Positions 9,901-62,243 of a stretch of 64,000 nt of DNA are shown here, in pieces. The translations under genes and the position numbers were made by a program. Source of the stretch: Ginglymostoma cirratum (lineage: Eukaryota). The stretch spans positions 21,251,288-21,315,287 of the forward strand of contig JAHRHZ010000045.1 in assembly GCA_024137785.1 (NCBI GenBank), in the 5' to 3' direction. The notes under the pieces were generated by a model, which had not been told where the DNA came from, did not search any database, and worked only from the letters and a program-made list of their open reading frames with translations. The stretch's first letter is position 1. Each line of letters begins with the position of its first letter.

Positions 9901-12900
9901 GACAGCAGTAACTTCTGTATGGTCACATTGGAGCACTTATGTTGACTTCCGTGCTTAAGTCTTTCGGTGTAAGTTTTGAATTCACAACGTTCTGCAACCT
10001 GCAGTGATGTGCAACGGTCAATATACTCCCTTTCTCTTTGTTTTTGAAAGCATAAGTAAGAGGGATTTCATAATCTTCTAATTCACTCACCAGTAATCCA
10101 AAAGTCGCCTGCAACCAGCTTTAATTGGAAATTCTAACGTGGTGGCATTTCCTTTTCCTAATGAGTCAGTCAATCATTAACTCTTCCCTGAAAATTAGGG
10201 AGAGAAAAAAATACAGGATTTCAATATTAAAGCTGCAACATAAGGATGATTTAAAAACAAGCAAGTGATAACATATCTTCTGACTCCACTGGGAGATCCA
10301 TTATTGGATTTAAATATATAAGCCAGTGGTACCAGCAGACGATGGTCTCACGATTGTGACCACTGTGTGAGGGGAAATAGATGCTTCTGTGCAGTGACTG
10401 AAAGAAGGTGAATATGGGATTTTCACATGTATGATATTGCTATCAGATGATTGTCATGATTTTGAATCCTGTCACAGTCAGATTATGTCACCATCAAGTT
10501 CAACTTCATGAAACCAAATCATGTTTCTGCTCAGTAGTTGAGTGCTGAAATTTCCTGATGTGGAGATGCCGGTGTTAGACTGGGGTGGACAAAGTCAGAA
10601 GTCACATGACACCAGGTATTGGTCCTTTCAGAACACTTTTTACCAGATGAAGGAGTAGCACTCCAAAAACTTGTGATTTTAAGTAAACCTGTTGGGCTAT
10701 CACCTGGTGGCATGTAACTTCTGACTGAATTTTCCTGTTCAAGGTGGCCATAAACATCAGCTGGTTGAGCAGGGTTGTTTGGCCTTACTGCCTGTCTCGC
10801 TTCTTGAGTTATGTCCATGTTCTTGGAGTAGACTTGTGTGGTGTCCATGCTCAAAGCCTTCAATGGCTGTTGGCCAATTCAGGAGTTAGTGTGCATTGTT
10901 ATTTTTCAACTGTTTTTAATTCGAATTTTGTGTTTTTTAATTTTATACTTCTGGTTTCCGCGACAGAGCCCCTTTTTAAGGGACTAACACCTTTTTTTAA
11001 TTTCTATATAATTTGATCTAATTTGGCTCAGACAGCAGCTCCCACTATCACTGTGTATGCTTGTAACAACAACATAATTAAATATTCTACTTTTAAGGTT
11101 TTGGAGTAGATTTGTATCTTGGGTTGTGGGTGTTGAGCCCTCTACGTGCTAAAAAGACTTAAACAAACTGGACAGTTCAACAAAACAGACTTCTTAAGAA
11201 CGAAACCCGAAGGAACCAACACACCCCGATTCTACGGCCTCCTGAAAGTGCACAAGCTGGAAGTACCCCTTAGATCCATAGTCTCCCTACCAGGCACTCC
11301 ATCACACAGATTAGCCAAGGAACTACAAAGGAGACTCGGGCATCGAGTTAACAAGTCACCCCACTCCATCCACTCAGCCCAAGAATTCCTCAACTCCATC
11401 AAAGACATAAAGATAGACGACGAGGAGACCATGATATCGTTTGATGTCACTGCCCTATTTATATCAATAGACATACCACTAGCAAGGGAAAGAATCACAG
11501 CACGACTGGAACAACGGTAAGGCCCCAGTGAAACCATCTCCACAGACAACCTGCTCCAACTACTGGACCTATGCTTCACCACCCACTTCACTTTCAACGG
11601 CCAAACATACGAACAAATCAACGGGACACCCATGGGATCACCTATCTCCGGACTCATAGCAGAAGCAGTGATGCAAAGACTAGAAGGGACTGCCCTTTGG
11701 CTAATCCAACCAAAACGGACCAAACTCGCGGAGGCGCACAAACTCATGAACAACACCATCACTGGAATAAAATTCACCAGAGAGGAGGAGAAGAACAAAC
11801 GGCTCTCATTCCTGGACGTCATGGTAGAGCACAAGACAAATGGGGAACTCCAAACGAAAGTACACAAAAAAAAGCCACACACACAGACCAGGTACTGAAC
11901 TTCAACAGTAACCATCCCAACACACACAAACGAAGCTGCGTGCGAACACTATTTAAACGGGCAGCAATACAGAACTACGCCAAGAGGAAGAATGTTACCT
12001 CTTCCAAGTATTCAAGGATAATGGATATCCAAAAAACTGGGTCAGAAGATGCCTATACGAACAACATCAGGAAGATACTGCAAGCCCTGACACACTCATC
12101 ATACCACCCTACATCAGGAACACATCGGAAATCACCACAAGACTTCTACGACCGCTGGGCGTCAGAGTGGCACACAAGCCCACATCAACCCTACGACAAC
12201 TGCTCACCCGAACTAAAGACCCATTCCTGCCATGGCCAGGACCAGGGTCATCTACAAGATCCGCTGCAGAGACCGTGAGAAACACTACATTGGACAAACA
12301 GGAAGGAAACTAACAACAAGGGTACACGAACACCAACTGGCTACAAAAAGACCACAACCAATACTCATTCATCTCAATCCACATGGATAAGGAGAACCAC
12401 CAATTCGACTGGGGCAACACCAAAATCCTGGGACAAGCTAAGCAGAGACAGGCACGGGAATTCCTAGAAGCCTGGTACTCCTCGAAGCATACTATTAATA
12501 AACATATTGAACTCGTCCCCATATACACTCTGCTATGAAGGAAAACCTGAAGTGAGGCAATCCAGCTCAACAGACTCCAGAGTTTAAAAACCAGGTGGGA
12601 AAACACACTGATGCTTCATTGGAGGCTGCACTGATGATGTTACCCAGCAGGGTAATGAAACGTCTGCGGAACAACAAACCAGCTCGGCGAGCCAACCGAC
12701 CTCAAAGTTCTACTTTTTTTTAGTAAAAGATGAATAGGACTGTTGATTCTTTACATAGTGTTCTGTTTCAATGTTTGTCCATTCTACAAATGCGTTTTGA
12801 GATCTGATTATTCATATCATAATGTTACTTAGAAAACAAATGTTACATTATGGTCACTGTTATTTCATAAAGAATCAGGTATGATGTGATGAAACTGGTC

Positions 12901-15900
12901 CGTTTCCTGTTTCAGTAAAATCAATTTATATTGTTGCTCAGTGATGACATTTAGCGAGCAAATTTGTTTTCTTTGTGCGAAGAGTAAGAAGTCACGTAAT
13001 TATTAAAGATGTACTTCTGGGACGTATACTTTGAAGCTAGATTGGATCTTGGGTGTTTGTGTAGGTTAAGTGAGTGAACAAATCTGACAAATTATGTATA
13101 ATGTAGGCAAAGGTGAAATTATCCATTTTGGCACAAAATAAAAAGAAATTATTATCTAAATGATGAAAGATTACAGAATTATGAGGGCCCAAGTACATGA
13201 ATCTCAAAATCTAATAGGCAGGTACAGCGAGTAAGTAGGAAAGCTAATAGAATGTTATTGTTTATTGTGAGAATTGAAATCAAAAATTCAGAGGTTACAC
13301 TTGAGTCATACAGGGCACAGGTAAGACCTTATCTGGAGTGGTGTTCTAAGTTCTTCCCTCAGTCTTTTTTGTAAATTCAGCATTTTTTCTTGTAAGGGGA
13401 AATCATTTTCATGATAATGGGCAAAGCGATCTTTGGTTCATTTCAATGTTTTTTTTGAAAGGACTTTAATTGGATTCTGCTATCTCCTGCGCAATGAATG
13501 TTTATCATAAGTTGAGCATCAAAGTAGTTTGGTAAATAAAAGTTAATTTTCAGATGAGAGCTTTTTTTTAATCGCCTGGAAGTATTGTACTGAAGTTATT
13601 TGCTGGTTTCTATCAATAAGGTAGTACTTATAAGAAAATAAATATTAGTTGCTCGGTGGTCTAGGTGCAGATTTTTATGTGGTCAGGCCATTAGCCATTA
13701 TAATTCCAAGCATTGGAATTCTCTTTAAACAGAAAATGGAATTAGGTTTTTGAATAGATTTGTAGCTTGGGTTGTGGATGGTTGGCTCGCCGAGCTGGTT
13801 TGTTGTTTTTCCGCAGATGTTTCATTACCCTGCTGGGTAACGTCATTAGTGCAGCCTCCGATGAAGCGCCATTGTGTTTGCCTGCCTATTATGAAAATGG
13901 AATAGCAAGAATCGTACAGCATGGAAACAGGCCCTTTGGTCCAACTTGTTCACACTGACCAGACATCTCAATCTGATCTAATCCCATTTAGCAGCATTTG
14001 TCCCATATCCCTCTGAAACCCTTCCTATTCAGGTACCCATCCAGATGCCTTTTAATGTTGTAATTGTACCTGTCTCCCCCACGTCACACTTTCCTACATT
14101 AATTACTTCCTGCTCCTGCATGCTAACCTTGTGTTTCATGCACGAGAACACTCAATCCTGCTGTGTTGCACCTTTAATGGAGTCTTTCCATTTTTGTTCT
14201 GTCACTGGCCAAACCTATGTAGTCCTGTTGCCTAGAGTTGCCGCTGGCCACTGCAATGCTTAAGTCAAGGGAGTATGTAGAGTGGGGCAAATAGTTTCAA
14301 AGTACCCTGTCTATTTCCCTTTTTTTTTTCCATTCATCCCAATTGCACTCACTTCCTGGGATAGCCTGTTGAAAGGTTGTGTTAGACTTGAAATGACAGT
14401 GACAACGGGGCTCAAATATTATAAATGGATGGAAAAAGCCTATAAAAAAGATCTTTTGAGTACCGGCAGAATGCCTGGTCTCCTGACTTGGGGGAACTGG
14501 GTTGGTGTTGCAGGTTGTTTGTAACTGAACTTGTAAAGGCAGGGAAAGAGAAACCTAGCCCCAAATGTTGAAACAGTCTTTCTCGTCTGTTAGGGCTTCA
14601 TATTTATATTCCTTGTAATGTGATGATACATTAGGAGTACTTGCAGATTTTTATTCTGTTCCTGTTGTAGTTAATATATTGTTTTTGCTTCTTTACAGTT
14701 TCCTCATGTGATTGTGAATTGTGTGGAATGCTTTTCTTCAAGGATGCTTTTTGAACAAATACTTAATGAGCTGCAGGGTCATTCGCTATCCCCCAAGAAT
14801 GAATACTCTTCTTGTCTACAGTGTAACACACTCAATGAATTTGTTCTACTTTATAAGCAAGTGGTCCACAAACAGAATTTGCGCAATCAAACTGTCTACA
14901 TTGTAAGTAAATGATTATGAAATTACTCAACTTCTTTTAAAAATTAGCATTTCGGGGGGTCACATAACAAAAAGGAATAAATCTGATGGCTTTATCATAT
15001 TATTGGCACAGTAGGGTGGCTCTGTGCTGTACTTTTGAGGTTAGCTTGGTTGTGATTCAAAATTACTAATCTTATTAAAAGACATGTTTCCTTTTTGCAC
15101 CCATATTGCCCCTTGCCAGATGTGGTTTCATGCTCTCCTAATATGCATTCCTCATGTTTTCCTTTTTCTGAGTGTTGTAGGCAATAATACCATGGAGCTA
15201 ATCAGAAGGCAGTTCAAATTTTCCCTTACTTGTTGCCCATAATTCTAATTCAATCAAGGATTTTGCAATACTGATAAGGAGTCAAAGTGCTGGTTTATCA
15301 TTTGCTTTCCTCATGATCAGTCTTGCTGAAGCTGTTGGTGTTATTGAATCTGTCTGCCAGAGAGCTAACTCAGTGCAGATCCCCAGAATTGAATCAGAGA
15401 CTTGGTTGATCTTTGCAAATCAGTTTATTACTGAATTGTTGAGAAATTCTATATTCACTGTTTTTGGCAGCGGATGGTTTCACATCAAAGAATAGAGAAT
15501 AATTTGATGTATCAAAAAAGGGTGAGAAAGGTTATTAATGTTCACTACCCCTCCAACTTATTGAAAAGCCAACTCTTAGGAGAGGCCGGAAATGAGAGGG
15601 GAGGCAGAAATCTTTAGCCAACTTTTACTTAAAGTGGTGAGGAATTTTCCAAACTCTGAAACAAATAATTGAAGTTCAGGATGACATGGTTAGTTCAACT
15701 TGTCACTAAACGAGCCATTTCTTCTGTTAGATGCTTGTAAGGAAGGGGATGCTTCCTGATATCTAACCGCAATGTTTGTTTCTGTATTTTTTTTTTAAAC
15801 ATATCCCTTTGGTTCTATTTGCTTCTAGTTGTTCTATCCATTTCAGGTAAAACTTGTATCTAAAAACTAACATCTGTAATTCTGCCTCTGAGCCTATGTT

Positions 15901-18900
15901 TCTCCAAAATAAATACCATTAGCTATAAGTCATTTCTAGTAATTGAAGATCATTAATTTTGGGTATAACAATGGTGAGGGTATAAAATACAATCACATTC
16001 TTGAGAGGTAGGTATCAAAATTAAATAGTCAAAACCTTAGGCAGTCTAGTAGTCTATTTTGATCATTTGTTAGTTTAATAAAGTATGTTACGTTAAGTTG
16101 GCAAGGAACTTACTTTCTTTAATGAATGGAAGTGTCTTGGTGGCCCCTTGGAATTAGGTGGATGCTTGCTGTGGAGTTCCCAGAAAAGAGAGAAAGGGAT
16201 GTAATCAGTGGAAGCTAGAGGACGTGAAAAAGGGAAATGAAATGGCTAACGGAGAAACAGCATTTTAAAACCATATTCCGCATTGCCAATCAGTCTGTGG
16301 TCAATGAGTGGTTGTGCACCTTTTCTGCTATTACATTTTCAGCTGCTTTAATCTGCATTGTGGACAGTCCACTGCATTCTTCCCAATTTTCAAATAGCTT
16401 TTCAGGTTAATTTTGGAATATTGTTGCTGGCCGTCCTATGACATTTTACCAGTCATGAGCTGGGAGTAGAGTGTGCACTTTGGGAGGTCATTCTGATACA
16501 GTGGCATGTCCAGAGCAGCTGTGGTTTTGACAATGGTTGGTTGCCTCCGTGCTTGGGTTACCTCCTTCATGGAGGATGCTAGTATTTATGTAGTGATCCA
16601 TCCAGTTGACACACAAGATTTTACATAGGCAGCACTGATGGTATGGACTAGGCATTCTTTTATTGTTGGTAATAAGTCACCCAGGTTTTGCAGCCGAAGA
16701 AAAGATTTGGAAGGATGATGGCGTAGTAGATATTTTTGGTCAGATTGTTCTTGCATATCTCTGGAGCAGGTGGAACTTCACCTGGGCCTTCAAGCTCAGA
16801 GGTTAAGGACACTAGCACTGTGTCACAACAACATTTTACTGCTTTTGGCCCTTTCAGCATGCCTTACTGTGAGATATGCTAAAGGATGATCTCTTGTTGT
16901 CTCAGCTCCACTTTGCTGTCTTCTCTCCATCATCCTTGACTCCCTTGTCTTTCAAAAATCTATCCAAATCTGCCTTGAATCAATGATTCAGCCTCCAGTG
17001 AGAAAGGGAATTCCACTGACAAACAATCCTCCTGGAAGAAAGAAATCTCCCCTTCTGTGTTAAAGGAATGAGTTCTTCATTTTAAATTGTGTTCCCTACT
17101 TCCAGACTTCACAAAGTATTTTCTTGATGTCCACCCTCTTGAGTCCCATCATCAAAAGTTTTTCAAAAAGCTGCATAGCCATACAGCTGCTCGGAAGCTC
17201 CGCACTCGTGCCAGTGCATGGCTTTTGCACACCTGTACTTGCTACACGATGCAAAGTGACTCTTTCTTGAACATAGGTTATATAAATATTTTACGGTGTT
17301 ATGCATTTCTTCCAGAATGTAAAAAATTTTGAAACATTGTTTGCAATGCTGCTTCTGTCGCACAGCTGCCTTTTATCACCCTAGGATGCAAGTGATGAGC
17401 TTCCTGGGACTTACGACTTTTTGGGAGTCAGTAGCTACTCCCTGTTAGATACTGTTTAAAGATTTTTAGCTAACTGTAAGAAGAATATCACATTTTTTTA
17501 AAATTATTTTTTTAAATTTTGAATAAAATGATAAGATGGAAGATTCATGTGTGATTTGTGTTGATGTAGGCTAAGTATCTTGTGTAAATGCTAAATCGAA
17601 TACCTGCCTTCATTCAAGGTGTTGGATAAAGCAGAACATTTGAGGGAAATGGATTCAAACCTGTTGCCTGGATTTCTGAGGTTTCAAGAATTGGTAAGTA
17701 GCTGGTCTCTTAGTGGCTATAATTATTTCCTGTAACAATCTTGTATTATTTTCATTCTCAAATATTTTGAAATCTTAAGAATATTGTTAGTAAAATAAGT
17801 GTACAGTCCAACAGAAAATGGCTTTGAACTTGCTGTTAGATGCAAAGTTTCTAATTTTGTTGTTGAGTGTATTATGTTTGCTATGCATGTGGAGCTACCT
17901 CTTTCCCTATAGCTGGAACCCAGCTAAAGACCAGAAGAGGACCAGAAGTTGATGTACATGCTTTTAGTGCTGTTGCGGTAGCAGTAAATTCTTCCTCGCA
18001 AATCTTCACAGCCTTGGTATTTTCTAAATCGTGTTTCTGCAAACTGCATACTTTTATCCTTTACCTATTTGTTCAAACATGATGCAATTTGTGCAGATTG
18101 GGACAAACCGCAAAGCATGTTTGCTTCAGAATTACTGCAGCTTTGGACAACCAGAGGTAAAATGATTACTGTGGTGCATGGAACTTTTCAGAGGATTATG
18201 TTTGATAGTCTGGAAATATACTTAATTGCTATGGAGGATTAACAAAGAATATTTATCATAGAAAATTGTTGATAGAACTGAATCCATGATTGGTTTGATT
18301 ACATTAAAATTTGTTGCAAGGACTGAAGCTGTTGCCCTTGCTCCCCACAATGAGCATTGGCTTACAATCCCAAACACCCTCCATCAAAAAGTCAGCCTAC
18401 TTGCACCACCATGGTAATGGGTGTCTCTGTTCTGTTTCAACTTCCTTGGTGCTAAAACCCTCATCCATACTTTTCTCTTGTTTAAACCTGAGACGTGACT
18501 ATTCCATTGTTCTCTTTTTATTGGTCTCCCATCTTACACTAAAAGAAAGTGTCTCCAGCACTCATCTGTTCCGATCTTAACTTGGCACTTAGTCCTGTTC
18601 ACTTATCACTCCTGTGCTTACTGACCTACACTGATTTCTGGTCTTAAAAAGGTCTCAATTTTAATATTCTTGTCCTTGCTTGCAATTCCCTCCATATCTT
18701 TGCCCATTTCATCCTGCAATCTTTTCCAGCCTAGATCAGAGATCTCTGCATTGTTCAATTTCTGGCTTTTTCATAACTCCGGTTTTGTTCATATCTCTGC
18801 TGATGGTTGTCTCTTCAATTTTTTTAGGCCATGCAGTTTAGGGAAGGTGTTCCAAACCTCTAAATATCGAACTTAATTTCATAGTGACTACTAGTTGAGT

Positions 18901-21900
18901 GCCAATTGGGTGTGAAAATGGTGTTCAATATGTGCACTTCAATGGTGAATCGTGCAAGATGCCATATTGGTGAAGATAATGGGAAGTGCATAATGAATTC
19001 TCATTGGAAGTATAAAGGAGAGTGGCACATCTTAAAAGATTAAATTATCTTCATGTTAGGCCCCTACTCCTGGACTCCAGGAGTACTCCACACATGGGTT
19101 CTTGGAATCCACTGTGTAGAGTAACGAACCAATGAAGCTGGTTGCGCAAAGATCAGTCTCAGAATCTCCTGGCCTTTTACCCAAGTTAAACAATCAGTAC
19201 TTGTGAAAGTATGACTACAAGAAAAGGCAGTCCTGTACTGATGACCATGCAAGTTGAGACAGCAGGAAGAGTCAGGCTAGGTAAGAAAAGGGATAACAAG
19301 GTGTGGAGCTGGATGAACACAGCGGGCCAAGCAGCATCATAGGAGCAGGAAAGCTTGACGTTTCGGGCCTAGACCCTTCTTCAGAAATGGGGGAGGGGAA
19401 GGGGGTTCTGAAATAAATAGGGAGAGAGGGGGAGGCGGATAGAGGAGAAGATAGGTGGAGAGGAGACAGACCGGTCAAAAAGGCGGGGATGGAGCCAGTA
19501 AAGGTGAGTGTAGGTGGGGAGGTAGGGAGGAGATAGGTCAGTCCAGGGAGGACGGACAGGTCAAGGGGGCGGGATGAGGTTAGTAGGCAGGAGCTGGGGG
19601 TGGGGCTTGAGGTGGGAGGAGGGGATAGGTGAGAGGAAGGACAGGTTAGGGAGTCGGGGACGAGCTGGGCTGGTTTTGGGATGCGGTAGGGGGAGGGGAG
19701 ATTTTGAAGCTTGTGAAGTCCACATTGATACCATTGGGCTGCAGGGTTCCCAAGTGAAATATGATTCGCTGTTCCTGCAACCTTCAGGTAGCATTGTTAT
19801 GGCACTGCAGGAGGCCCAGGATGGACATGTCTGCGGAAAGGGAGGGGGAGTTGTAATGGTTCGCGACTGGGAGGTGCAGTTGTTTAGGTGTTCTGCAAAG
19901 CGGTCCGCAAGCCTCCACTTGGTTTCCCCGATGTAGAGGAGGCCACAACGGGAACAGCGGATGCAGTATACCACATTAGTAGATGTGTAGGTGAACATCT
20001 GCCTGATGTGGAAAGTCTTCTTGGGGCCTGGGATGGGGGTGAAAGGTTGCAGGAACGGCAACTCATATTCCGCTTGGGAACCCTGTAGCCCAATGGTATC
20101 AATGTGGACTTCACAAGCTTCAAAATCTCTCTTTCCTTCCTACCTACCACCGCATCCCAAAACCAGCCCAGCTTGTCCCTTCCTCCCACCTATCCCCTCC
20201 TCCCACCTCAAGCCCCACCCCCAGCTCCTACCTACCAACCTCATCCCACCCCCTTGACCTGTCCGTCCTCCCTGGACTGACCTATCTCCTCCCTACCCCC
20301 CACCTACACTCACCTTTACTGGCTCCATCCCCGCCTCTTTGACCGGTCTGTCTCCTCTCCACCTATCTTCTCCTCCTATCCATCTTCTATCAGCCTCCCC
20401 CTGTCTCCCAATTTATTTCAGAACCCCCTTCCCCTCCCCCATTTCTGAAGAAGGGTCTAGGCCCGAAACATCAAGTTTTCCTGCTTTTATGATGCTGCTT
20501 GGCCTGCTGTGTTCATCCAGCTCTACGCCTTGTTATCTCAGGAACTGCAGATGCTGGAGAATCTACTACCTCGGTAAGAAAAGGACTGGATGTATAGCAG
20601 GCATCTGAAAACAGACAGAAGGAAGAATGACAGTGAAGAGAAATCAGTTAACATTTCGGGTTGAGCGACCCTTCCTCACTCGACCCATGACATTAACTCT
20701 GCTTTCTCTCCACGGATGCTGCCGAACCTGTTGAGCTTTTCCAGCAATTTGTTTTTGTTTCTGATTTACAGCATCTGCAGTTCTTTTTTTCTTTTTATGA
20801 AGAATGACAGTACTTTGCAGAACAGCACTGAACAGAGAAGTGCTTACAGCCCTTCTTGTACTGTGGCTATTTAGAGTCGATTAAGGGGCAGAAAGGTCTT
20901 GAATCAGCATGCACTGCTGAATCGCTGTCAGTGCTGCAATTTAGCAGCTCTAGCTCTAGCTTTCTTAAATTCTGCATAGCTAAACATGTTAAACAGCAGG
21001 GAAGTCTAACTCTGCTACTTGCCTGTCCTTTCTCAGAATAATTAAATTGGTTGAATTCTTGTAGCTATGTCAACTCTTGTTTTTTTCAATAGATAAAAAT
21101 GTAAAAGTCTGCAAGGAGTTGGGGGTAGGGTGTAGGTTGTGCAGGTGCTATAGGTTTTTTTTTGTGGATTTCAAAGCACTGCATAAACTAATTGCTCCTG
21201 GGCATGGAGGATATAGGAAGGCGTCTTTTTGATATTGAACAGAATTTAGGTGTTGGACGTGACTTGGGAGAATCTGCGTAGACTATGCAGAGCAGAAGGA
21301 GGGCCTTCAGGGAGAAGATCTGTTCAAGATTTTTTTTGCGATCTGATATCCAGAGCCATGATCGCAGGAGTCTGAACTTCCATTGCAACACTTGAATGAT
21401 GTTTGTGCTGGAACAGAAGTAGCAATATTTGTCATCAGATAATGCATTGTTGTTTACTCCATGGGAATCCCTAATGTCAAACAAAAACAAAACTGCATGG
21501 ACACTTGGCCTCGACCTAGGGTCTAGCACTATTTTAAAAAAAAAACCTAGCCCAGTCAACCCCACAAAGTCTCCCTTGCTGTCAGTTGTGTACTTGTCTA
21601 TCACACGGGTCTTCCCCTTTTTGACATGTCAAACAGGAGCCTAACATTACTATTCTCCAGCCAAAAGCCTTGATTCTTCAGTCACCATCCCTGAATATGT
21701 CCTGTCTCTGTAAAACCACAGAGCAACATTTGCAGCATGATGTTATCAGCAGCATTGTTTTCCACAATTTGCCACCTCAGTGCTAAGCCTGCTCTTTGTT
21801 CTGTGGCTGCCATGGAGACAGGACGTCAATCTTTGTTCAATAGGACTGTAAAAGAGCATGTCAGAAGTGGCACCAGCACCTAGTGGGGAGGTGCAAACAT

Positions 21901-48900: not shown

Positions 48901-51900
48901 CATTAGTCAATATTAGCAAAAGGGCACTTTATTTTTAATTTCCTCTTGACCAACATGTTGCCTTTGACCATTATGGACTTACTGAGCTAAGTAGTAGATA
49001 GTAAATGGAGGGCCATAACAGCCGGCTTTATTTTTTTCCCTCAGATACACTGGTTCTATATTACAACATTATATATGCCAGTAAGTGTGTCGAAGGACTG
49101 AAGGAAGTGTTATAATATGTTGCAAACTGTGCTGCTGCTGTTTATGAAATCTAAATTGCATATTGGAGTATTTAGTTTTATTATTGACATTAAAATGTAT
49201 AGCTATAAATTTTTCTTAACATCTTGAGAATGGATGAAGGAGTAGAGACATGGTGATACCATTAAGACAATTGTTTACAGTTGTAAACTTTGCTCTTGAG
49301 GTTGTCCAAATTTAAAAAAGATTCAATTTTAGACTCTAGTAAGCTGGTTCACGTCATTGAGGTTGAGAGCATATCCTTAATGTCAGGGCAGCACTATTGT
49401 GACATCCCGACCTGAATAGCTCTGCAGAGCCAGTTATTTCAGGTGGTTAAAAATATGGTGCTTAGTGGTGCATTTATTTGCCTTTTGTGTGATATCGTGG
49501 AATTACTGAGCCTTGATAGAATGGAATATTCTTCTGATGTCTTTTTGAATGTTGTTCCAACAATACTGAAGATGACAAAGTAGTCTGCTTGCTTGGAACC
49601 ACCTTTTGATCCTTTGCCAGTGATACATAGGTGGTAGCATGTGTACCACCTACAAGATGCACTGCAATAACTTGGAAGGAACCTTTGACAACACCTTCCA
49701 TATCTACAATGCCTACTGTCTGGAAGGGCAAAGCAGCAGATGCATGGGAACACCATTGTTTGCTCCAAGCCACACAGTAAATTGACTTCAAACTGTATTG
49801 CCATCCCTTCATTGGGTCAAGTGCCTGGATCTCCCTCCCTAACAGCATTGTGACGTTTCTACACCCAAGGAATGTGGCAGTTCATGAAAGCAGGTCACCA
49901 TCACCTTCTGCAAGACAATTAGGGATGGGCAATAAACATTAGCCCAGCCAGAGATTCTCTCATCCCATCAGCAAATCAAATAAAATCTTTAAAAAAGAAT
50001 GTTAGTTGGGAGTTTTTTTTAGTAGACCAGGAAGGTTTACTTCCTTTTTCATAAGCACGACATGAAGCTTCATGATATTATGTTCATGTTATGGAATAGG
50101 ATTTGAATTCACAACTGCTGACTTTGAAGGTGAACATGCTATCACTGAACCAAGTCTGACACCTTAATATTTGGTTTGTGTTTCAGATCAAAATCATGCA
50201 TTTTGTTTCAAAGGGATTGTGTAATCTGTAGGGATTACCCTTGAGTTTGCAGGATTTGTGTTGGTAGGCTATTAGTACTTAATAATGAAATCTCTTGTTT
50301 TAATTGGAAATACTACTTTAATCTGATAGTATCTTGTGAATTAAGCAACATTGTGCATTTACTCTAAAATAGTTACAATCATAAACTTATGTTGATGTGT
50401 TGAAAAAAACATTTAAAGTTTGAGAAACAATTTTTTTTGTTGCATATATATAACTACCTTGAGTACTTAAGTGCTAAAACAGAAAATTGCTGCCGAAACT
50501 CAGCAGATGCTGCCATACCTTTTGAGTTTTACCAGCAATTTCTGTTTCTGTTTCAGATCTCCAGCATCTGTAATTCTTTGTTTTCTTACAATGTTTTAAG
50601 TTTTTTTTTTCTCCATGTTTTGTTTTCCAGCATCATGGGAAAATTAAGAAAACCTCATTCCTGAAAAAACATGAAAAGGTGATTATTTATATTGTTATTT
50701 TCTAAATCCCTGTTGGATCAATGTCTGTGTTGCAACTCGTATTACTCCTGAAATGGCACCAGTTTTACAGATGCTAACATTTACTAACTTGTGGATTATT
50801 CCAAATTTAATAATAATTTTAAATGTTACACTGTACACATCATAACATGGCTGGGGAAAATGCTTTCTTTAAAGAAAACTGATCAGTTGTGTGATGAAAT
50901 TGCACATTTTCTCTTACATTTCACATTGGTTTTAACATTGACTGGAATTGCTTTGTTTTACATCATGACCTATGCGGGGAAAATTCATTAGGTTTCCGCA
51001 AAGCTCTATTTAGGCAGTAATGCAAATTTTAGCATCAAGATATTTTGTTTGCAGTAGAACTAAAGGGATAGTATGGATCTTTCATACTTGGCTTTTTGGG
51101 TTATATTTCATTGTTGTTTGTTTTGGTGCTTGTAGTAAGGAGCTGCTTTCTTTTTCGCCCCCTTCTAATGTTGACCTATCCCCCATGAGGGAGATGTGGT
51201 TTGATATTTTTGGAGTTTAAATTCATCTGCGTTTCCAAGAAGCTGTCCTGACTGGGATATCCTGTTAATTGAGCGTAGTTACTGTATCCAACCTGTCTGT
51301 GTAGTTCAGTTTCACTTCATATTATCAAGTTATCATATTACTTAATAAATTGTGTAATGTTTGCACGTAATATTTATTACATTCATTAAAAATTACAATA
51401 GACTTTTGACTGGAAGTTCTGTGGTGAGAAACATATCTCCTGACTTCCCTGTCCACCGTCTGGAAGACAAGTCAGAAATATAGTGGAATTACAAGTACCT
51501 GGAATGGGAGCTGCTCCAACAATACTGAAGAAGCTCAGCACCATCCGTGACTAAAATAGTTTGCTTAATTGAAAACTGATCCATCCCCTTAAACATTCAC
51601 TCCTTCCATCAACACCCAAGGCCGTGTGTGCCATCTTACAAGATGCATTGCTGCAGCTCACCTAGTTTCCTTTGACAGCAGCTTCCAAAACTTACGCCTC
51701 TACACCCAGCAACAGAAGAGCAGCAGTGCAATGCAGCAACTCCACCTGCAAGTTCCCCAAGAAGCCATGTGCCTCATGATTTGGAATTATATATTACTGT
51801 TCCCTCAATATTTCTGGACAAAAATTCTGGAGCTCTCTCACTAACAGCTGTGTGGGTAGACCTACATCACATGGGCTGCAATAATTTGAGCAAGTGGCTC

Positions 51901-54477
51901 ACCACGGTCTCCTTGAGGGCATTTGGGGATGGACAACAGATGCTCGTCTTGTCAGCAATGCACACATCCCATGAAAGATTTTTTAAAAATCTGTTCTTGT
52001 ATAATACAAGTCGAATGTGACTTAACCAGTCATTGTGAAATAGTTTCCATGTACCATTTATGGTTGTCAGACCCCAGGGAGATAACTTTAGTCAGTGAAT
52101 CATCCTGCACATCAGATGTTGATATTCGTATTTCCATCAACCGTACATCTGCTCATGTGCTTCGTTATTCCTTAATCAGAAAGATAATGTTCTTTCTTTC
52201 CCCTATGTGATTTTTTTATGCATGTCTCTGAGATGTAGGAACTTTTTATGCCTAAAGCACGTGGTCCCTGAGCTCCATTTTGTTTCTACTATTTCATTCA
52301 TACTACTTCATTCATTTCTAATGAATGAAGAGTGTCATTTCTATAAACAGATAGTAAAGAACAGTTATGGGTAACAGGAGTATTATCCTGTCTGCTCTTG
52401 TTTTTTTTCAATTTCCTCCTGAGCAGTAAAGGAGCTCATGGATTCCAAGGATATGCAACAATCACCTCCTTATGTATAATGCATACCAATTTGATGGTAC
52501 ATCTTGATCCCTGACTCCAAATAATATGTGTTCATTCTGCTCCATCTCTTAATCTCTTACACAAACATTCAGGTTTGGCTCTATTAACTACTTATTTCTT
52601 TTGTTGGGCTATGATCCTCATTACCCAGAATGACTATTTCTATTAGTGCTGCTACACCAAGTCTTTCCCTCTGCTGGTATTTTTCTTCCCAACTCACCAT
52701 GTATCTTCAAGGCATTAGGGCCCATTTGTAGTGTCATTTCTACTGTATATTTATTGGCCACTCTCCTCAGTTAGTGGCTGAAAATTCTGACCTGTCTTAA
52801 TTTCAGTGGCAGCACAACTTTGGTTCTTGTAAATTACTAAACACTTTTGAGTACCTTCAAAATTGCCAACAAGGTTGTTTATGCAGTGCCTATGCTAGTC
52901 TGAGTTTTAAGGATAAGTACACTTAAGATGGGTATTTTCTAATGTGTATTTGTTGATGCTGTCTGTGACTCAGCTTAAATATCATACTTCACTGTAATCT
53001 GTTTGGCTCTTTACCGTACAAGATATTACTTGCACTGTTGGATGTATGTTTTCTGTTGTGAATTCTGTGATGAGTCATGTGAGTGATGACAAAAGATATA
53101 TAACCTACTTTGCACTCTCACAATTGGAGTAAGATCCAATGTGACATGAAATGAAATAAGTCTCTCCTTGTTTTTATATACCTTTTTATATATCAGAAGT
53201 GCTGCTGAAAGCCTGACAAGTTCAGCTGTTTAAAATTTTCAGTAACTTTGTTTTTCTGCTTCAGTTCAGGAAATGGCAGATAAAATTTCCAGTGTTTAGG
53301 TTTGTAGTCAGAACTTGCTTGTGCCTTGTTATTTTATTTGACTACACACCATCCTGATGAGCTGTTCATGAATGACTTTTTGTAAATTGCTGTGGATTTA
53401 GCTTGCATGCATGTTTTGTTGAATTATTAAATAGCCCTTAAATTGCCTGATAAAGTATTCAACGGAATCATCTTTAGATCAGAAGTGCTTGCCTGCTTGA
53501 CCTCTCTTAGGTTTTACATGTGACTCTTTTGGAGGTGCCTTCACATTGCAATGCTCTGTCTACTCTTTATGACAGCTTCTCATGAAGATGCCGAGGCTTC
53601 AGAGTTGCCAGCCCTTTACTAGGCTAGCACCACTGGGAGACTGCCCAAGGCATTGAGCTATTAGGAGCCTTTCTGAAGGAATATTACCAAGCTAGTCTGA
53701 TTGTCGACAAGCTGTTCTGGAATCTCTCTTTTTGCTCTGAAGATGGGACCAATTATTTTTGAGACTGTTACAGATTACGTATTATGTGGGCAGGATGTAA
53801 GATGTTTGAAGTGAGATGCCCCGAGGAACATTATTAAAGAACAACAACAAAACAAGACTAGGACCATTGAAATTGTGTAGTCGAAAGTGAAGCTAAACAG
53901 TTGATGCATAGACCGGTGAATCAGAGCAAAAAAAAAGCCGTGCGCCACCTGTGATTGATCTGATGCTTTTTTCAGTAGACTTGCATTTGATCAGATTCAC
54001 GTTATGAATTGCAATTGAAAAGATAGACACGTTCACAGGAAGTAAGAAACTTCTGAGTTTTTCCTTTCTATCTGGGTTTTTGTTGACATCATTTTAAGTG
54101 TTTTATGAAACAAGTGTAGAGGGAAACAGTGATTGATATTTTGTCTTTAGTGTTGTCATTATTGACTTACAAATCTTCAGCTATTCTCCTCAACATTCAT
54201 CACATTAATTAGTGTTAGTTGTGGTTTGAAAACATGGTGCACAACAGATTAAGAAAGTGAACTCAATAAACAAGTGGTTGTTCACATAATTGGAATGCAG
54301 GCATATAACGTCCCTTGATGCACTATTACTAAGACGGATCAGTCTGATTAATCTTGTTTGTTACAGACCAGCAATCACCTCCTTGGCCCCAAACCATTCC
54401 CACTGGATAGGTTGTTGGCAATTTTCTACAGCATTGTTGATAGCAGAGTGACTCCCACTGCAAATATTTTCTCTCAG
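6817..54477 (+). CDS. ORC5: Origin recognition complex subunit 5, spliced CDS, 12 coding exons, 3'-incomplete
   Basis: Twelve GT-AG exons (111+93+204+75+112+131+49+91+53+113+48+111 = 1191 nt) join in one frame with matching phases. The translation follows vertebrate ORC5 as recalled: Walker A GHTATGKT, Walker B region [65 protein letters not shown]. Confidence 0.97.
7735..7827 (+). CDS. ORC5: ORC5 coding exon 2 (Walker A)
   Basis: [31 protein letters not shown]; ccttccag| and |gtaaga. Confidence 0.96.
9615..10015 (-). mobile_element. Decayed Deu-domain SINE (SacSINE1/AmnSINE1-like)
   Basis: cacctgagagggtagattggccctcaatttaacatatcatctgaag...tttgacagc resembles the reverse-complemented Deu domain as recalled; L2-like tail cccaaagtgcttcaca; tRNA-like head ttgaattcacaacgttctg. 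Confidence 0.6.
10558..10724. mobile_element. Inverted-repeat mini-element (family C) with a decayed hammerhead
   Basis: agtcagaagtcacatgacaccagg and cctggtggcatgtaacttctgact are inverted arms; ccagatgaaggagtagcactccaaaaactt is a decayed HHR; TSD CTGAA(A/T)TTTCCTG at 10545-10557 and 10725-10737. Confidence 0.7.
11095..12707 (+). mobile_element. Penelope-like retroelement (Poseidon-type), 5'-truncated, inactivated RT plus GIY-YIG
   Basis: [78 protein letters not shown]. The YVDD segment is deleted and there are frameshifts. TSD TTCTACTTTT at 11085-11094 and 12708-12717. Confidence 0.92.
12627..12668 (+). ncRNA. Minimal type I hammerhead ribozyme motif in the Poseidon pLTR
   Basis: TGCA-CTGATGA-T-GTTACCC-agca-GGGTAAT-GAAA-CG-TC-TGCG: core intact, 7-bp stem II, 4-bp stem I, palindromic ACGT in place of stem III; predicted cut after 12664. 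Confidence 0.75.
13745..13870 (-). mobile_element. Solo Poseidon pLTR with a mutated hammerhead (CTAATGA, GAAACATC)
   Basis: Reverse complement of about 12610-12700, extended by the tail also seen at 11097-11133. Confidence 0.85.
13900..14085 (-). mobile_element. CR1 LINE 3' end
   Basis: tacagcatggaaacaggccctttggtccaac...acccttcctattc; reverse complement of the CR1 tail at 57040-57330. Confidence 0.75.
14699..14902 (+). CDS. ORC5: ORC5 coding exon 3
   Basis: [25 protein letters not shown]...NLRNQTVYI; ctttacag| and |gtaagt. Confidence 0.96.
16500..16870 (-). mobile_element. Decayed RTE fragment interrupted by a tRNA-SINE
   Basis: [24 protein letters not shown] is an RTE-type motif; the SINE lies at about 16755-16830. 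Confidence 0.55.
17619..17693 (+). CDS. ORC5: ORC5 coding exon 4
   Basis: [25 protein letters not shown]; cattcaag| and |gtaagt. Confidence 0.95.
18330..18870 (+). mobile_element. Decayed L2-like LINE fragment
   Basis: gactattccattgttctc...atcactcctgtgcttactgacctacactg (DYS...ITPVLTDLH) is typical of the L2 RT C-terminus; L2-like 3' ends also near 5860-6160 and 32480-32815. Confidence 0.5.
19292..20572 (-). mobile_element. Neptune-type PLE remnant forming a long inverted repeat
   Basis: [30 protein letters not shown] (GIY-YIG); arms about 19292-19784 and 20043-20536; TSD GGTAAGAAAAGG at 19280-19291 and 20573-20584. Confidence 0.92.
19354..19387 (-). ncRNA. Minimal hammerhead ribozyme motif in a Neptune pLTR
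   Basis: Minus strand reads TTT-CTGAAGA-A-GGG-tctagg-CCC-GAAA-CG-TC-AAG; core intact, stem I only 3 bp. Confidence 0.6.
20635..20798. mobile_element. pLTR-like mini-element (family B), partially inverted
   Basis: Perfect 13-bp TSD GAAGAATGACAGT at 20622-20634 and 20799-20811. Confidence 0.8.
21895..22618 (-). mobile_element. CR1 LINE 3' fragment
   Basis: [48 protein letters not shown]. Confidence 0.85.
22620..25515 (-). mobile_element. Tx1-like (L1 clade) LINE, 5'-truncated, decayed ORF2 plus about 650 bp of 3' UTR
   Basis: [32 protein letters not shown]...[17 protein letters not shown]...[15 protein letters not shown] resembles Tx1 ORF2; [10 protein letters not shown] (decayed YADD) near 24925-24950. 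Confidence 0.85.
26569..30958 (-). mobile_element. Near full-length CR1 LINE, inactivated (5' UTR repeats, ORF1, ORF2 with APE and RT)
   Basis: ORF1 from about 30454: CSSC zinc-finger/leucine-zipper part, then an esterase-like region ([15 protein letters not shown]...DGLYLN..G). ORF2: [49 protein letters not shown]. (ATGTTCT)n-like tail at about 26569-26590. Confidence 0.95.
30640..30955. repeat. CpG-rich tandem repeat in the CR1 5' UTR (about 90-bp units, 180-bp higher-order period)
   Basis: cagcagtcccct(c/t)gcactctc starts at 30646, 30735, 30826 and 30915. Confidence 0.9.
32239..32373. mobile_element. Neptune pLTR mini-element with inverted ends
   Basis: aagtgtgg... and ...ccacactttgttatctc plus tail; TSD ACTTAATTTACA at 32227-32238 and 32374-32385. 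Confidence 0.82.
33709..33820 (+). CDS. ORC5: ORC5 coding exon 5
   Basis: [37 protein letters not shown]; gtttacag| and |gtacaa. Confidence 0.96.
33880..34580 (-). mobile_element. CR1 LINE fragment with internal deletions
   Basis: [20 protein letters not shown]...[10 protein letters not shown] plus RT C-terminal remnants. Confidence 0.8.
35475..35605 (+). CDS. ORC5: ORC5 coding exon 6
   Basis: (A)[43 protein letters not shown]; acttcag| and |gtaagt. Confidence 0.96.
35660..37473 (+). mobile_element. CR1 LINE, 5'-truncated decayed ORF2
   Basis: [56 protein letters not shown]; ends cctactcctgcacctattttctatgtttct. Confidence 0.92.
37525..37621 (+). mobile_element. 97-bp Neptune pLTR mini-insertion starting at the hammerhead
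   Basis: ttttctgaagaagtatctaggtctgaaacgtc...ccttgttatc; perfect 14-bp TSD TCAAATGTCTTGCA at 37511-37524 and 37622-37635. Confidence 0.85.
40360..42525 (-). mobile_element. Penelope-like retroelement (Neptune-type), 5'-truncated, with an inverted pLTR
   Basis: 401-aa ORF 40730..41935: [18 protein letters not shown], Cys-rich linker [24 protein letters not shown] (GIY-YIG). Inverted arms about 40360-40778 and 42072-42491. TSD TGCTGCCAGACCTT at 40346-40359 and 42526-42539. Confidence 0.95.
42396..42429 (+). ncRNA. Minimal hammerhead ribozyme motif in the inverted pLTR
   Basis: TTT-CTGATGA-A-GGG-tctcgg-CCC-GAAA-CG-TA-GAG; canonical CUGAUGA/GAAA core, weak stem I. Confidence 0.55.
42695..43002 (-). 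mobile_element. tRNA-derived SINE with a LINE-related tail
   Basis: Head on the minus strand: gtggtacaatggtaatgttactg...ggacatggatttaaatcc. Tail cagggatcagcaacaagtgctgaccctgccggcaatg resembles the LINE 3' ends near 49.9 and 51.9 kb. Confidence 0.6.
43473..43521 (+). CDS. ORC5: ORC5 coding exon 7
   Basis: [16 protein letters not shown]; tatttcag| and |gtaagt. Confidence 0.94.
44546..44636 (+). CDS. ORC5: ORC5 coding exon 8
   Basis: (A)[29 protein letters not shown]; acttatag| and |gtaatt. Confidence 0.95.
45575..45990 (+). mobile_element. LINE 3' fragment (CR1-group, clade uncertain), copy 1
   Basis: Aligns by eye with 49540-49990 and 51470-51990. Confidence 0.65.
46114..46166 (+). CDS. ORC5: ORC5 coding exon 9
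   Basis: (S)[17 protein letters not shown]; gtttcag| and |gtgaac. Confidence 0.88.
47461..47573 (+). CDS. ORC5: ORC5 coding exon 10
   Basis: (G)[37 protein letters not shown]; tgctcag| and |gtagtt. Confidence 0.96.
48250..48860 (+). mobile_element. Highly decayed CR1 fragments
   Basis: ggacttaaaggcagacaagtctccag and a CR1-like 3' end tctgtgctgtaatgac. Confidence 0.5.
49540..49990 (+). mobile_element. LINE 3' fragment, copy 2
   Basis: tgtgtaccacctacaagatgcactgca...caattagggatgggcaataaa followed by an A-rich end. Confidence 0.7.
50472..50586. mobile_element. Family B mini-element just upstream of an ORC5 acceptor
   Basis: aacagaaaattgctg... and ...cagcaatttctgtt are inverted arms, followed by the tail ctccagcatctgtaattc. 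Confidence 0.7.
50631..50678 (+). CDS. ORC5: ORC5 coding exon 11
   Basis: [16 protein letters not shown]; ttttccag| and |gtgatt. Confidence 0.94.
51470..51990 (+). mobile_element. LINE 3' fragment, copy 3
   Basis: Same family as 49540-49990. Confidence 0.7.
54367..54477 (+). CDS. ORC5: ORC5 coding exon 12
   Basis: [37 protein letters not shown]; tttgttacag| and |gtaagt. Confidence 0.96.
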
Positions 54478-54756: not shown

Positions 54757-56410
54757 TCTGATTTGATTTATTATTTTCTCATGTTCCGAGATACAGTGAA
54801 AAGTATTGTTTTGCATACTAACCAGACAAATCATAATTTACAGAAGTACTTCAGAGTAAGATACTAAATAAAAACCGAAAGAACTACAGATGTTGTAAAT
54901 CAGGAACAAAAGCAGAAGTTTCTGGAAAAGCTCAGCAGGTCTGGCAGCATCTGTGAAGAAAACATCAAAGTTAACTGTTTTTGTTACGTCAAAGTAAGAG
55001 TTCAGAATGCAGAGTATAGTGTTACAGCTGCAAAGAAGGTGCAGAGAAGGATCAACTCTAATGTTTGAGAGGTCCATTCATAAGCCTGGTAACAGCAGGG
55101 AAGAAGCTGTTTTTGAATCTCTTGGTACATGTTTCCAAACTTTCGTATCTTTTGTTTGATGGAAGAGGGTGGAAGAGTGTATTAACCTGGGCGGGAATGG
55201 TCCTTAATTATGTTGGCTGCTTTCCTGAGGCAGTGGGAAGTGTAGATGTAGTCAGTGGAAGGAAGGATGGTTTTTGTGATTGATTGGACTGCGTTCAAAA
55301 CTAATTTGTTGCAGTTTTAGACCATGAGCAGTTGCCATACCAAGCTGCGATGCATCCGGATAGGATGCTTTCTATGGTGCACCTATTAATATTGGTAACA
55401 GTTATTGTGGACATGCTGAATTTCCTTAGCCTTCTGAGGAAGTAGAGGCATTTGTGTGCTTTCTTGACTGTAGAGTCGATGTGGATGGCCCAGGATGGAT
55501 TGTTGGTGATAATTACTCCTAGGAACTTGAAGCTGTCGACCACTCCCACCTCAGCACTATCGATACAGACACAGGGGCGTATCCTCCACTCCACTTCCTG
55601 AAGCAGATAACAAGTTCATTTGTTTTGCTAAAATTGAGGGAGAGAGATTGTTGTCTTTACACCATGCCACTGAGCTGTCTTTTTCTTGCACTCTGTCTCG
55701 TCGTGTTTTGAGATCCGACCCACTGTAGTGGTGTCATCAGCAAATTTGCGAATGGAATTAGAGCTGAATTTGGCTACGTAGACCTGTATAGTAGGTGGCT
55801 GAGTACGCAGCCTTGAGGGGCCATGGTGTTGAGGATTATTGTGGAGAAGATGTTGTCACCCTATTCCTACCGATTGCAGCCTGCGGGCCAGGAAGTTGAG
55901 GATCCAATTGCAGGCTGCGGGGAGCAGAGTCCTAGGTTTCTGAGTTTATAGATGGATTTGGCAGGAATTATGGTATTGAAGGTGAGCTAAAGTCAGTAAA
56001 TAAGGGTTTGACATAGGTGTTCTCGTTATCCAGATGTTCCAGGGATCAGTGTAGGGCCAGGGAGATGGTGTCTGCTGTGGAACTATTGTGACGGTCGGCG
56101 AATTGTGGTGGATCAAGGCAGTCTGGAAGGTTGCAGTTGACGTGTGCCATTACTAACCTCCTGGAAGCATTTCATAATGCTGGATGTCACAACCACTGAG
56201 TAGTAATCATTGAGGTATGTTGCCTGATTTTTCTTTGGTACCGGGCTGATAGTGGCCTTCTTGAAGCAGGTAGCACTTCCCATCTTAGTAAGGAGAGGTT
56301 AAAGATGTCTGCAAATACTCCCGCCATGCAGGATCTGAGTGCACGACCAGGGACTCTATCTGGGCCAGTCGCTTTCTGGGAGTTCACTGTCAGGAAGGCT
56401 GATTTGTTTC
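54757..56410 (-). mobile_element. Rex1/Babar-clade LINE, 5'-truncated, interrupted by a family B mini-element (about 54865-54982)
   Basis: [80 protein letters not shown]. Confidence 0.88.
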
Positions 56411-56549: not shown

Positions 56550-56668
56550 GGAGTCTTCAGAACTGTTCTGAAAAAGGGTCACTGGATCAGAAATGTTGTC
56601 ATTGCTTTCTTTCCACAGATGCTGCCAGACCTGCTGAGTTTCCCCCGGAATTTCTGATTTTGTTTCAC
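56550..56668 (+). mobile_element. Family B mini-element
   Basis: cttcagaactgttctgaaaaagggtcactggatcagaaatgtt...gatgctgccagacctgctgag. Confidence 0.75.
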
Positions 56669-57039
56669 ACTTTTTAAAGTTTGACAAGCCTTCATGTAAC
56701 AACCTTATTCAGAACAATGAAAAAAAATTTAAATTCAAACAAAGAAAAACTGAGTGCGCTGAAATTAACAACAGTAGAGTCAACAGAATAACTTTCAAAG
56801 TAGAAAATCCATTCTAAATGCAATTCTGAAGGCACACACACAGCTGGATGAAACAAAACAAAAAGCAAAAGACAAATAACGCAACAAATACGTTGCTACT
56901 GATATTCGTGGAATGGCCCCATCATAGTACAAGTATGACTGTGTCTGAAGTGCTTACAGAAGGCAAAAGAATGGCAGAAGAATCAATATTCAGTCCCCTC
57001 ACATGAACTGAAAGATCACAGATCTCGTTATGAGAGTTC

Positions 57040-60655: not shown

Positions 60656-60767
60656 ACATAAACAAAACTGCTGGGAAACCTCAGCAGGTCTGACAGCATC
60701 TGTGGCGTAAAAATCAGAGTGAACATTTCGGATCCGATGACCCTTCCTCAGAACTGAAGTGTGTTTT
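60656..60767 (-). mobile_element. Family B mini-element with a hammerhead-like core
   Basis: Minus strand CTGAGGA-A-GGGTC-atcg-GATCC-GAAA-TG-TT; perfect 15-bp TSD GTCTCTGTTCCCCTA at 60641-60655 and 60768-60782. Confidence 0.85.
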
Positions 60768-61867
60768 GTCTCTGTTCCCCTACCCTGTCCTTTCTTTGTT
60801 TGGAATTGTAGTAAAGAGGCAGAATTTTAACTGATGAATCTGTGCAATAGGCAATTTGGAACTGGGCTTGTGGAACAGGTTTTGCCAGGCTCTAACTCAG
60901 CCATGACAGTAGCATCTTTTCTCTGGGTTTCCTGCCCATTTGGAGCAAATGGCCTGATCATGACCCACATCTGACTGCAATTCTCTTTCAATTAAGTTGA
61001 ATTTATTTGGATATTTGGACCTTGTATGAAAAGTCTGTGACGACAAAAATTCTTCACGTAAAGAATGTTAAAACACTGATGACTGGCAAAAGGATCGTAG
61101 TAGGAATAGAGCATTTGGTCACTTCAGCCTTCTGTGCCATTCATTGTGTCCATGGCTGTTTACCTACCTCATCTCTATTTTCCATTCTGCTCCTATGTTC
61201 AAAAGGAGACATTACCACACAGTTGAATGACTGATGAAACCAAAAGTCTGTCTGTGTTCAAAATTTGTGCGCAATCTAATAGTTTAAATGTCAGTACAGT
61301 CTGGAATTTTTAGATTTGAAATTTACTTAGTCCTTATATAACCTTAAACTCCATGATATATTCTTTCATAGACTCATTGTCCACCTTCTTAAGTTAGCCA
61401 GTGTTGTTCAAGCTTTGTAGGCTTCTAACAAGTTATCGTTTTTTGTAAATTTTGTCCATAGTTGTATTGGAATCTACAATTTCTCCTAAGTATCCAGGTC
61501 ACATATCTAGTCCTGGATATACTCTATTTCTGATTTTTAATTCTTGTTGGTGAGGATAAAACCATAGCCATACTTTGCCTCTTGGTTAGAGAAAGGACCT
61601 GAATCTATACCTGCGCTTTATTCTTCCACTGCTTGTGTGGTTCCAGTTCTGAAAACACTGATGAGTAATCAGAATTTGTGACCCTGCAGCATGACTTGGC
61701 CGTTTACCTTTGAAAAGCAACTGGGAGCTTTGCTTCTGTCAGAAGCAAGGATTACCTAGTGCATTCTTTGTCTACCAACTGATGTTAGCCCTCAGCTACT
61801 ATGTTTAACAGAGCAATATCCAATATTGAATTTGGCAGCAAGAAGATTTGAGATTTATAAGGGGTAG

Positions 61868-62243
61868 CAAGAACTGCAGATGCAGGAGTCAGAGACTCTG
61901 GAGTTTGTCCAGTCTGGAGCTGGAGGAACACAGCTGGCCAGAATACATCTGAGGAGCAGGAAAGTTGGAAGGGTCACCGGACCTGAAATGTTAACTCTGA
62001 TTTTTTGTGTTCTTCACAGATGCTGCCAGACCTGCTGAACTTTTCCAGCAATTTCTATTTTTGTTCTTGATTTACAGCGTCCACAGTTCTTATAGTTTTT
62101 ATTCAGTTTTTATTAGGAATGTTGATGTTTTGGGTCAGGATACTTCTTCAGAATTGGGTTGTTTCTGAAGAAGGGTCCCGACCCGAAATGTCAACTTTCC
62201 TGCTCCTCTGCTGCCTGGCCTGCTGTGTTCCTCCAGCTCCACC
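61868..62243. mobile_element. Neptune-pLTR inverted mini-element with a nested family B element (61968-62114)
   Basis: Arms tggagctggaggaacacagc and gctgtgttcctccagctcca; insert flanked by AGGAAAGTTG (61958-61967) and AGGAATGTTG (62115-62124). Confidence 0.75.

Follow-up and report, generated by a model that had tools for sequence, protein, structure and literature searches.

Why should several repeat families, scattered through the introns of one gene, carry what looks like the same small self-cleaving RNA? The question is raised by a 64,000-nucleotide stretch of the Ginglymostoma cirratum genome (contig JAHRHZ010000045.1, positions 21,251,288 to 21,315,287 of the forward strand; hereafter the window), in which a first-pass annotation had pointed to four repeat families with different sequences but one hammerhead architecture. 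Exons of ORC5 lie on the plus strand of the window (ORC5_C, E 2e-11 and 5e-08; ORC5_lid, E 8e-06) and its introns house most of the repeat copies; overall, the non-exon remainder contains many fragments of CR1/L2-type and of Penelope-like elements (PLEs), an expansion of which has been published for whale shark introns (10.1101/443036). The motifs, as we show below, are minimal type I hammerheads in PLE pseudo-long terminal repeats (pLTRs; probably so in families B and C) within ORC5 introns, with cleavage predicted from sequence, and we consider it highly probable that they belong to three PLE lineages in which selection acted on the source elements.

All seven sites named by the annotation are present, displaced by at most 1 nt (12631, 20445, 42399, 62165 and 10644 on the plus strand; 19384 and 60751 on the minus strand), and a self-search of the window located ten further, decayed or truncated copies. 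The 17 motif-bearing arms were scored for core, stems and link (row B20675p, out of register, was excluded), and the core boxes CUGANGA, GAAA and UH proved intact in seven and broken or truncated in ten. A core-only pattern found seven intact cores against a mean of 0.91 in shuffled sequence, none of 100 shuffles reaching seven, and the core with a stem II of at least 3 bp matched six times against 0.053, none of 300 shuffles reaching six. These counts refute a chance likeness to a short consensus, an explanation that, along with four independent origins, we regard as exceedingly improbable. The core is indeed short, the search with hammerhead models that the annotation had proposed came back empty (eight Rfam matches in the window up to E 10, none to a hammerhead), and two of 19 motifs from the metagenome scan described below (L014 and L016) resemble chance matches in GC-rich DNA; yet the motifs of the window stand at the expected place in PLE ends, and two of the four families are homologous.

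The one extra base that had been noticed after CTGANGA, between positions 9 and 10.1, is present wherever the first box of a copy is readable. Stem II is paired as described in the family B copy at 60751 (5 bp) and in the Poseidon copy at 12631 (7 bp, G-U as first pair), and the core of family C is decayed in its window copy (U4A and G12A). Two stems had to be redrawn: that of family A, read as 3 bp (GGG/CCC), is 4 bp long with a U-G pair (GGGT/GCCC), and that at 62165, read as 5 bp (GGGTC/GACCC), is taken as 4 bp with a 4-nt loop, because the longer version would close a loop of just 2 nt.

Comparison of the tails alone, with the motif excluded, reduced the four families to three lineages. 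Eleven of 16 pairs between A-type copies and family B beat all 200 shuffles, as opposed to none of 36 pairs between family C or Poseidon and the other lineages. Given this tail homology, A, its subfamily A2 and B form one lineage; the 5' strand of stem II is identical in the three, and their stems differ by a 2-nt indel and by U-G versus U-A. The lineages are, very probably, Poseidon, a Neptune/Nematis-type lineage comprising A, A2 and B, and family C.

The motifs of Poseidon and family A lie downstream of GIY-YIG open reading frames (ORFs) on the same strand. In family A, GIY-YIG was detected in both larger elements (E 8.9e-5 in 19292-20572 and 8.8e-6 in 40360-42525), the frame at 40730-42007 contains a CX2-5CxxC zinc-finger linker between reverse transcriptase (RT) and GIY-YIG that does not tell Neptune and Nematis apart, and the Atlas neighbours of the protein carry HTH_animal, RVT_1 and GIY-YIG (score 0.95-0.96). 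The Penelope/Poseidon clade is defined by an RT with a C-terminal GIY-YIG and without this linker (10.1101/2021.04.23.441226); in the Poseidon element (11095-12707), whose frames are broken, GIY-YIG falls just under the Pfam cut-off (E 2.8e-4), and no CX2-5CxxC was seen in the three frames of 11881-12420, broken as they are. A metagenome scan with a degenerate motif, which permitted four different links, yielded 23 loci, eight of them with PLE protein matches; removal of four duplicates left 19 distinct motifs, some of which are still close relatives. One locus (L010, 117-1237) has an ORF with 43% identity to the family A protein (E 4e-74), followed downstream by an A-like hammerhead that lacks a contiguous stem I. 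Scans of viral contigs for the A and C motifs gave no match, and the single match of a scan of genome contigs (L024) has no hammerhead upstream and was taken as chance.

Family C is represented in the window by a single copy, but it is highly repeated: its summed contig depth in run X2 ranges from 14,779 to 475,085, a measure that is not a copy number, against 11-15 in the flank. The locus was compared with four sequencing runs, all as contigs and with variants considered among those listed, and its sharp end at 10556 recurs in 1246, 1400, 948 and 138 contigs of the four. Among the listed variants, 10641 T>C, found in 8, 10 and 5 contigs of three runs, replaces the one wobble of stem I by C-G; U4 is present in one contig, which also has C-G instead of the window's T-A as the innermost pair of stem II. 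The link of the window copy, AACT, is one change from AGCT and two from ACGT. C-like motifs with an intact core and an AGCT link occur in the metagenome loci L005/L011 and L009; in L009 and L011 they have a 5-bp stem I and lie downstream of GIY-YIG-like coding sequence. L011 is 37% identical to the family A protein (E 1e-13), and L009 matches L011 (E 9e-8 and 2e-5); a Pfam scan of the frames of both loci gave no match, so that their link to PLEs comes from BLAST-type comparison. L009 and family C also have a 19-nt tail motif in common, 14 of whose 19 aligned columns are identical to the window copy (z 2.9, below the shuffle maximum) and which is closer to the consensus of the loose-end contigs of family C than to that copy. 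Since the C-like motifs stand beside GIY-YIG-like sequence and the tail motif is shared, family C is probably a PLE end with an AGCT link. The L009 hammerhead and GIY-YIG C-terminus (496-955) lie in a marine metagenome contig with unrelated-looking flanks, probably a mixed assembly.

Is there a sign that the RNA structure itself has been under selection, as the annotation proposed? Stem I, which the annotation had not considered, was part of no search pattern, and in the 19 metagenome motifs it nevertheless averages 2.9 bp against 0.93 bp after partner swapping, a value that none of 5000 swaps reached; 11 of the 19 have at least 3 bp. The link is self-complementary in 17 of the 19 (15 CG and 2 GC; p=0.0004 against one half). 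In the window, both Poseidon copies have a stem I of 5 bp and four young A copies one of 3-4 bp; it measures 4 bp in the B copy at 40294 and in C, so that it pairs in each of the three lineages, and is reduced to 0-2 bp in the remaining nine of the 17 arms, several of which are truncated there. The majority sequences of A and B agree at 11 of 11 core positions but at only 36 of 60 tail positions (one-sided p=0.007).

Among the copies themselves the picture is one of decay. Core and tail have changed to similar extents in A (2/55 versus 15/280, p=1.0) and in B (3/44 versus 39/267, p=0.23), with no significant excess conservation of the core. The CpG at 11.1/12 is changed in 9 of 17 copies, seven of the nine changes being to TG or CA, and G12 was lost through a CpG-type change in three copies. 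Likewise, the 16 copies outside family C keep CG in the link in six cases and have changed it in ten, eight of these to TG or CA, in DNA of 41% G+C with a CpG observed/expected ratio of 0.31. The two Poseidon TG cases may be ancestral, because the T belongs to an in-frame ATG. G10.1-C11.1 is G-C in family C and in most A, A2 and B copies; the two Poseidon copies and those at 37530 (A) and 61963 (B) have G-U there, and in two B copies the pair is broken. Variation between copies is thus mostly CpG-type decay. The ACGT link singled out by the annotation is the undecayed state of the best copies, but does not extend to family C, which is closest to AGCT.

As the copies have decayed while the core was kept across A and B and stem I pairs in each lineage, selection most likely acted on mobile source RNAs and not on the genomic copies of the window. 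That these copies were instead selected as intronic ribozymes acting on ORC5 pre-mRNA would suit the intact cores on the sense strand at 12631, 20445, 42399 and 62165, but we give it hardly any credence in view of the ten broken or truncated cores among 17, the similar rates of core and tail decay, and the three CpG-type losses of G12. The proposal of selection on an RNA structure across several PLE lineages therefore stands for the source elements, on the evidence of core, stem I and link, but it involves three lineages and comes with no significant excess of core conservation among the copies. Its companion claim, that the core is kept while stem II varies yet stays paired, holds for the A/B core and for variation from family to family, but finds no significant covariation inside A/B.

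Several observations weigh against selection for cleavage in three PLE lineages. The covariation score of stem II in a 13-copy A/B alignment was reached by 71 of 500 shuffles and is therefore no evidence, and there are just three independent lineages, whose stems are not alignable by homology. Stem I has only 2 bp in the A copy at 37530 and in the A2 copies, and 0-1 bp in the B copies at 60751 and 56568. Two copies of different subfamilies (37538-37542, and 62143-62139 on the minus strand) have the same stem-breaking GG to TA change at 10.2-10.3, either by coincidence or as an amplified non-cutting variant. In folding predictions, five monomers did not outperform shuffled sequences (z -1.95 to +1.65), and homodimers were joined by stem II instead of the link. 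Families B and C have no attached ORF in the window, and the connection of C to PLEs comes through distant relatives, L009 and L011. Finally, both Poseidon copies have an ATG within the first core box whose frame continues uninterrupted across the tail, a 3-nt indel preserving it; because the motif overlaps this probable ORF start, coding is a second source of constraint.

This last point leads to the most serious alternative, namely that the motif is retained mainly for roles other than catalysis (an ORF start, a promoter or start site, or a protein-binding fold), cleavage being marginal. Besides the Poseidon frame, it is favoured by an Anolis carolinensis Poseidon element (PAc), whose ORF begins at stem II and whose hammerhead mutants are reported to be unimpaired for insertion in vitro (Frangieh et al., 2024; PMC11167929), by copies that contain the whole uncut motif, and by the absence of any sign of purging from the plus (ORC5) strand, which holds 10 of the 17 motif-bearing arms and four of the six with intact core and stem II. 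We nonetheless judge it improbable: a coding or promoter role predicts neither the 11 of 11 core bases common to lineages whose tails are 60% alike or unalignable, nor a link that switches between CG and GC while remaining self-complementary. Just past the cut, family B shows a TTAAC resembling a branch point, a pyrimidine tract and a CAG with an ATG after it (e.g. 61988-62022 and 56594-56621), which could represent a 3' splice site and the beginning of an ORF; family A has an ATG at the matching place. In the 12 A and B copies that were read, the frame beyond this ATG runs for 12-28 codons without a stop.

On the reading that we favour, with selection on ribozymes of active source elements, the motif would lie at the pLTR-ORF junction in the RNA of the source element. 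Unable to close helix III on its own, the hammerhead would cut only as a pair joined through the self-complementary link (ACGU or AGCU) or with folding help from the element's protein, as established in other PLEs and as we infer here. Reverse transcription would initiate inside the RNA, some 40-100 nt beyond the cut site and mostly on uncut RNA, and would leave 5'-truncated, often inverted stubs with target duplications; this anatomy is seen in the window, and the mechanism proposed for it follows what is reported in PMC11167929. In active source elements, selection would have preserved the core, both stems (I and II) and the link; the copies left in the genome would be dead and decaying by CpG deamination. 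In a separate observation, stem II and its loop form a nearly full palindrome at 19384 (minus) and 20445, with a predicted 12-bp intermolecular duplex there in the homodimer.

The ends of the copies bear on this scheme. Measured from C3, 10 of 18 arms start between -5 and +11, three further upstream and five at +27 or later; the starts come from local alignment, in which indels make some undercalled and the A2 and B references had only 6-10 upstream bases. Family B copies have no common sequence beyond -5, and none of the arms was observed to start precisely at the cut; an arm at 61968 that seemed to do so was rejected, its junction having been produced by a family B insertion. Past the predicted cut the tails run for 64-66 or 99 nt in A, 66 nt in the B copy at 60751, 43 and 73 nt in Poseidon, and 58 and 89 nt in C. 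Because so many arms start close to C3, we also entertain, as a tentative and rather unlikely idea, that family B, together with the short units of A2 and C, consists of non-coding PLE mini-elements of ~100-170 nt, akin to short interspersed nuclear elements, with an RNA reaching from stem I to the internal start of reverse transcription and copied uncut by a Neptune-type protein; the link palindrome (ACGU versus AGCU) and a family-specific stem I would then serve as a pairing code by which only like elements form a cutting dimer.

How do these motifs compare with known ribozymes? They share the catalytic core boxes of canonical type I hammerheads in Rfam but differ in having no helix III and no Rfam match. 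The annotation was right to call them minimal type I PLE hammerheads, an identity already published (Cervera and De la Pena, 2014; PMC4209133). As in the metazoan motifs reported there, the type I core without helix III comes with the extra base, G10.1-C11.1, a palindromic 15.2-16.2 and a short helix I, and a genome holds many families with varying stem II, mostly as solo truncated copies. The paper gives as recurring features the base between 9 and 10.1, the G10.1-C11.1 pair, the 15.2-16.2 palindrome and consensus families that show compensatory changes, so that the extra base, the palindromic link and the family-wise variation of stem II are all already listed in that work, which also reports the motif from fish PLEs of the Poseidon and Neptune types. 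The Schistosoma families have a stem II of 7-8 bp, as opposed to 4-5 bp in A and B; a single Schistosoma minimal hammerhead did not cut, while dimers and trimers cut weakly. The families of the window were not found in the text of that paper or in the two supplements searched, which name no shark or skate. In a literature search on hammerhead ribozyme, Penelope and shark, 'shark' occurred only as a description of motif shape.

In the PAc element (PMC11167929), as in elements of the window, the hammerhead is placed where pLTR and ORF meet and extends over the start of the ORF; two tail lengths and copies from uncut RNA are further points in common. It differs in that protein-assisted cleavage was demonstrated, its hammerhead cutting only with the element's protein, whereas the cleavage of ours is a prediction. 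Reverse transcription starts 111-118 nt into its ORF and the cut falls at ORF base 26, from which we derive tails of 85-92 nt, longer than the Poseidon tails of the window and bracketed by the whole range of 43-99 nt observed here. Non-LTR retrozymes (10.64898/2026.07.22.740005) are likewise non-coding derivatives of PLE pLTRs with a type I hammerhead, but are defined as head-to-tail tandem arrays, while in the window the copies stand singly and dispersed or form inverted pairs. One of nine Xenopus retrozyme dimers was reported to cut, and retrozymes were reported in one chondrichthyan genome; the supplements of that study may list families of this window.

The copies are collected in Table 1. 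Partial tandem and inverted structures with a tail extension are a known PLE layout (10.1101/2021.04.23.441226). Flanking direct repeats measure at least 10 nt in 8 of the 15 units examined and 7-8 nt in four, and are absent from three.

Table 1. Host gene and PLE copies of the window, with their hammerheads
Feature	Position	Strand	Description
Host gene ORC5	7735..54477	+	exons incl. 7735-7827, 14699-14902, 35475-35605, 47461-47573, 54367-54477; gene ends not mapped
Family A tail	2457..2547	-	core absent
Family B inverted pair	4307..4485	.	truncated in stem II; 10-nt target duplication
Family C unit	10558..10730	+	inverted tail arm ~10558-10625 (minus); decayed hammerhead C3 10644, predicted cut after 10672, U4A + G12A; tail; 7-nt flanking direct repeat
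Poseidon-type PLE, 5'-truncated	11095..12707	+	short inverted tail at 5' end, broken RT + GIY-YIG ORF, pLTR; 10-nt target duplication
Poseidon hammerhead	12626..12669	+	core intact; stem I 5 bp, stem II 7 bp with G-U as first pair; link ACGT; cut predicted after 12664; overlaps open frame from 12634
Short Poseidon copy	13743..13892	-	hammerhead C3 13849 (G5A, ACAT link), long tail; 11-nt target duplication
Family A element	19292..20572	.	inverted pLTRs, GIY-YIG fragment; hammerheads 19384 (minus, intact, ACGT) and 20445 (plus, core intact, ACAT); 12-nt target duplication
Family B inverted pair	20600..20795	.	hammerhead 20679 (minus), truncated within first box
A2 subfamily inverted pair	32239..32373	.	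hammerhead 32322 (minus), truncated at first box; 12-nt target duplication
Short family A copy	37525..37621	+	begins just upstream of C3 (37530), by a few bases; intact core but broken stem II; 14-nt target duplication
Family B copy	40235..40359	+	hammerhead C3 40294, decayed, 4-bp stem I; interrupted by family A element, resumes at 42540
Family A element	40360..42525	-	zinc-finger-linker (Neptune/Nematis-type) RT-thumb + GIY-YIG ORF 40730-42007 (minus); 14-nt target duplication
Hammerheads of family A element 40360..42525	40453, 42399	-, +	40453 (minus) G8A + G12A; 42399 (plus) intact
Family B tail	50476..50597	+	core absent
Family B tail	54863..54975	-	begins near link
Family B copy	56556..56670	+	hammerhead C3 56568 (G8A, first stem II pair broken)
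Family B copy	60656..60767	-	hammerhead C3 60751, core intact, 5-bp stem II, ATGT link; 15-nt target duplication
A2 inverted pair	61863..62245	.	hammerheads 62151 (minus, decayed) and 62165 (plus, core intact, 4-bp stem II)
Family B copy inside A2 pair	61969-62114		inserted beside cut site of A2 minus arm

Two cases of nested insertion were seen, and two only: a family A element within a family B tail (40346-42539, 14-nt duplication) and a B copy adjoining the cut site in one A2 arm (61960-62123, ~9-nt duplication with one mismatch); PLEs are reported to insert preferentially into or next to earlier copies (PMC6765202). A further remnant of GIY-YIG, decayed and related to the protein of family A (E 5e-6), lies at 371-546 (minus), and no hammerhead was seen downstream of it within the window. 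Other repeats include a near-complete CR1-type long interspersed nuclear element at 26850-30470 (minus), with endonuclease and RT frames by Pfam, and a short tandem repeat at 30639-30960.

Taken together, these results add families from this DNA to a class described in 2014, of which they change little. The abundance of copies would, however, make this genome a good data set for asking what the PLE hammerhead is for, as its thousands of stubs are a record of where reverse transcription started and stopped, apparently on uncut RNA starting at the ribozyme.

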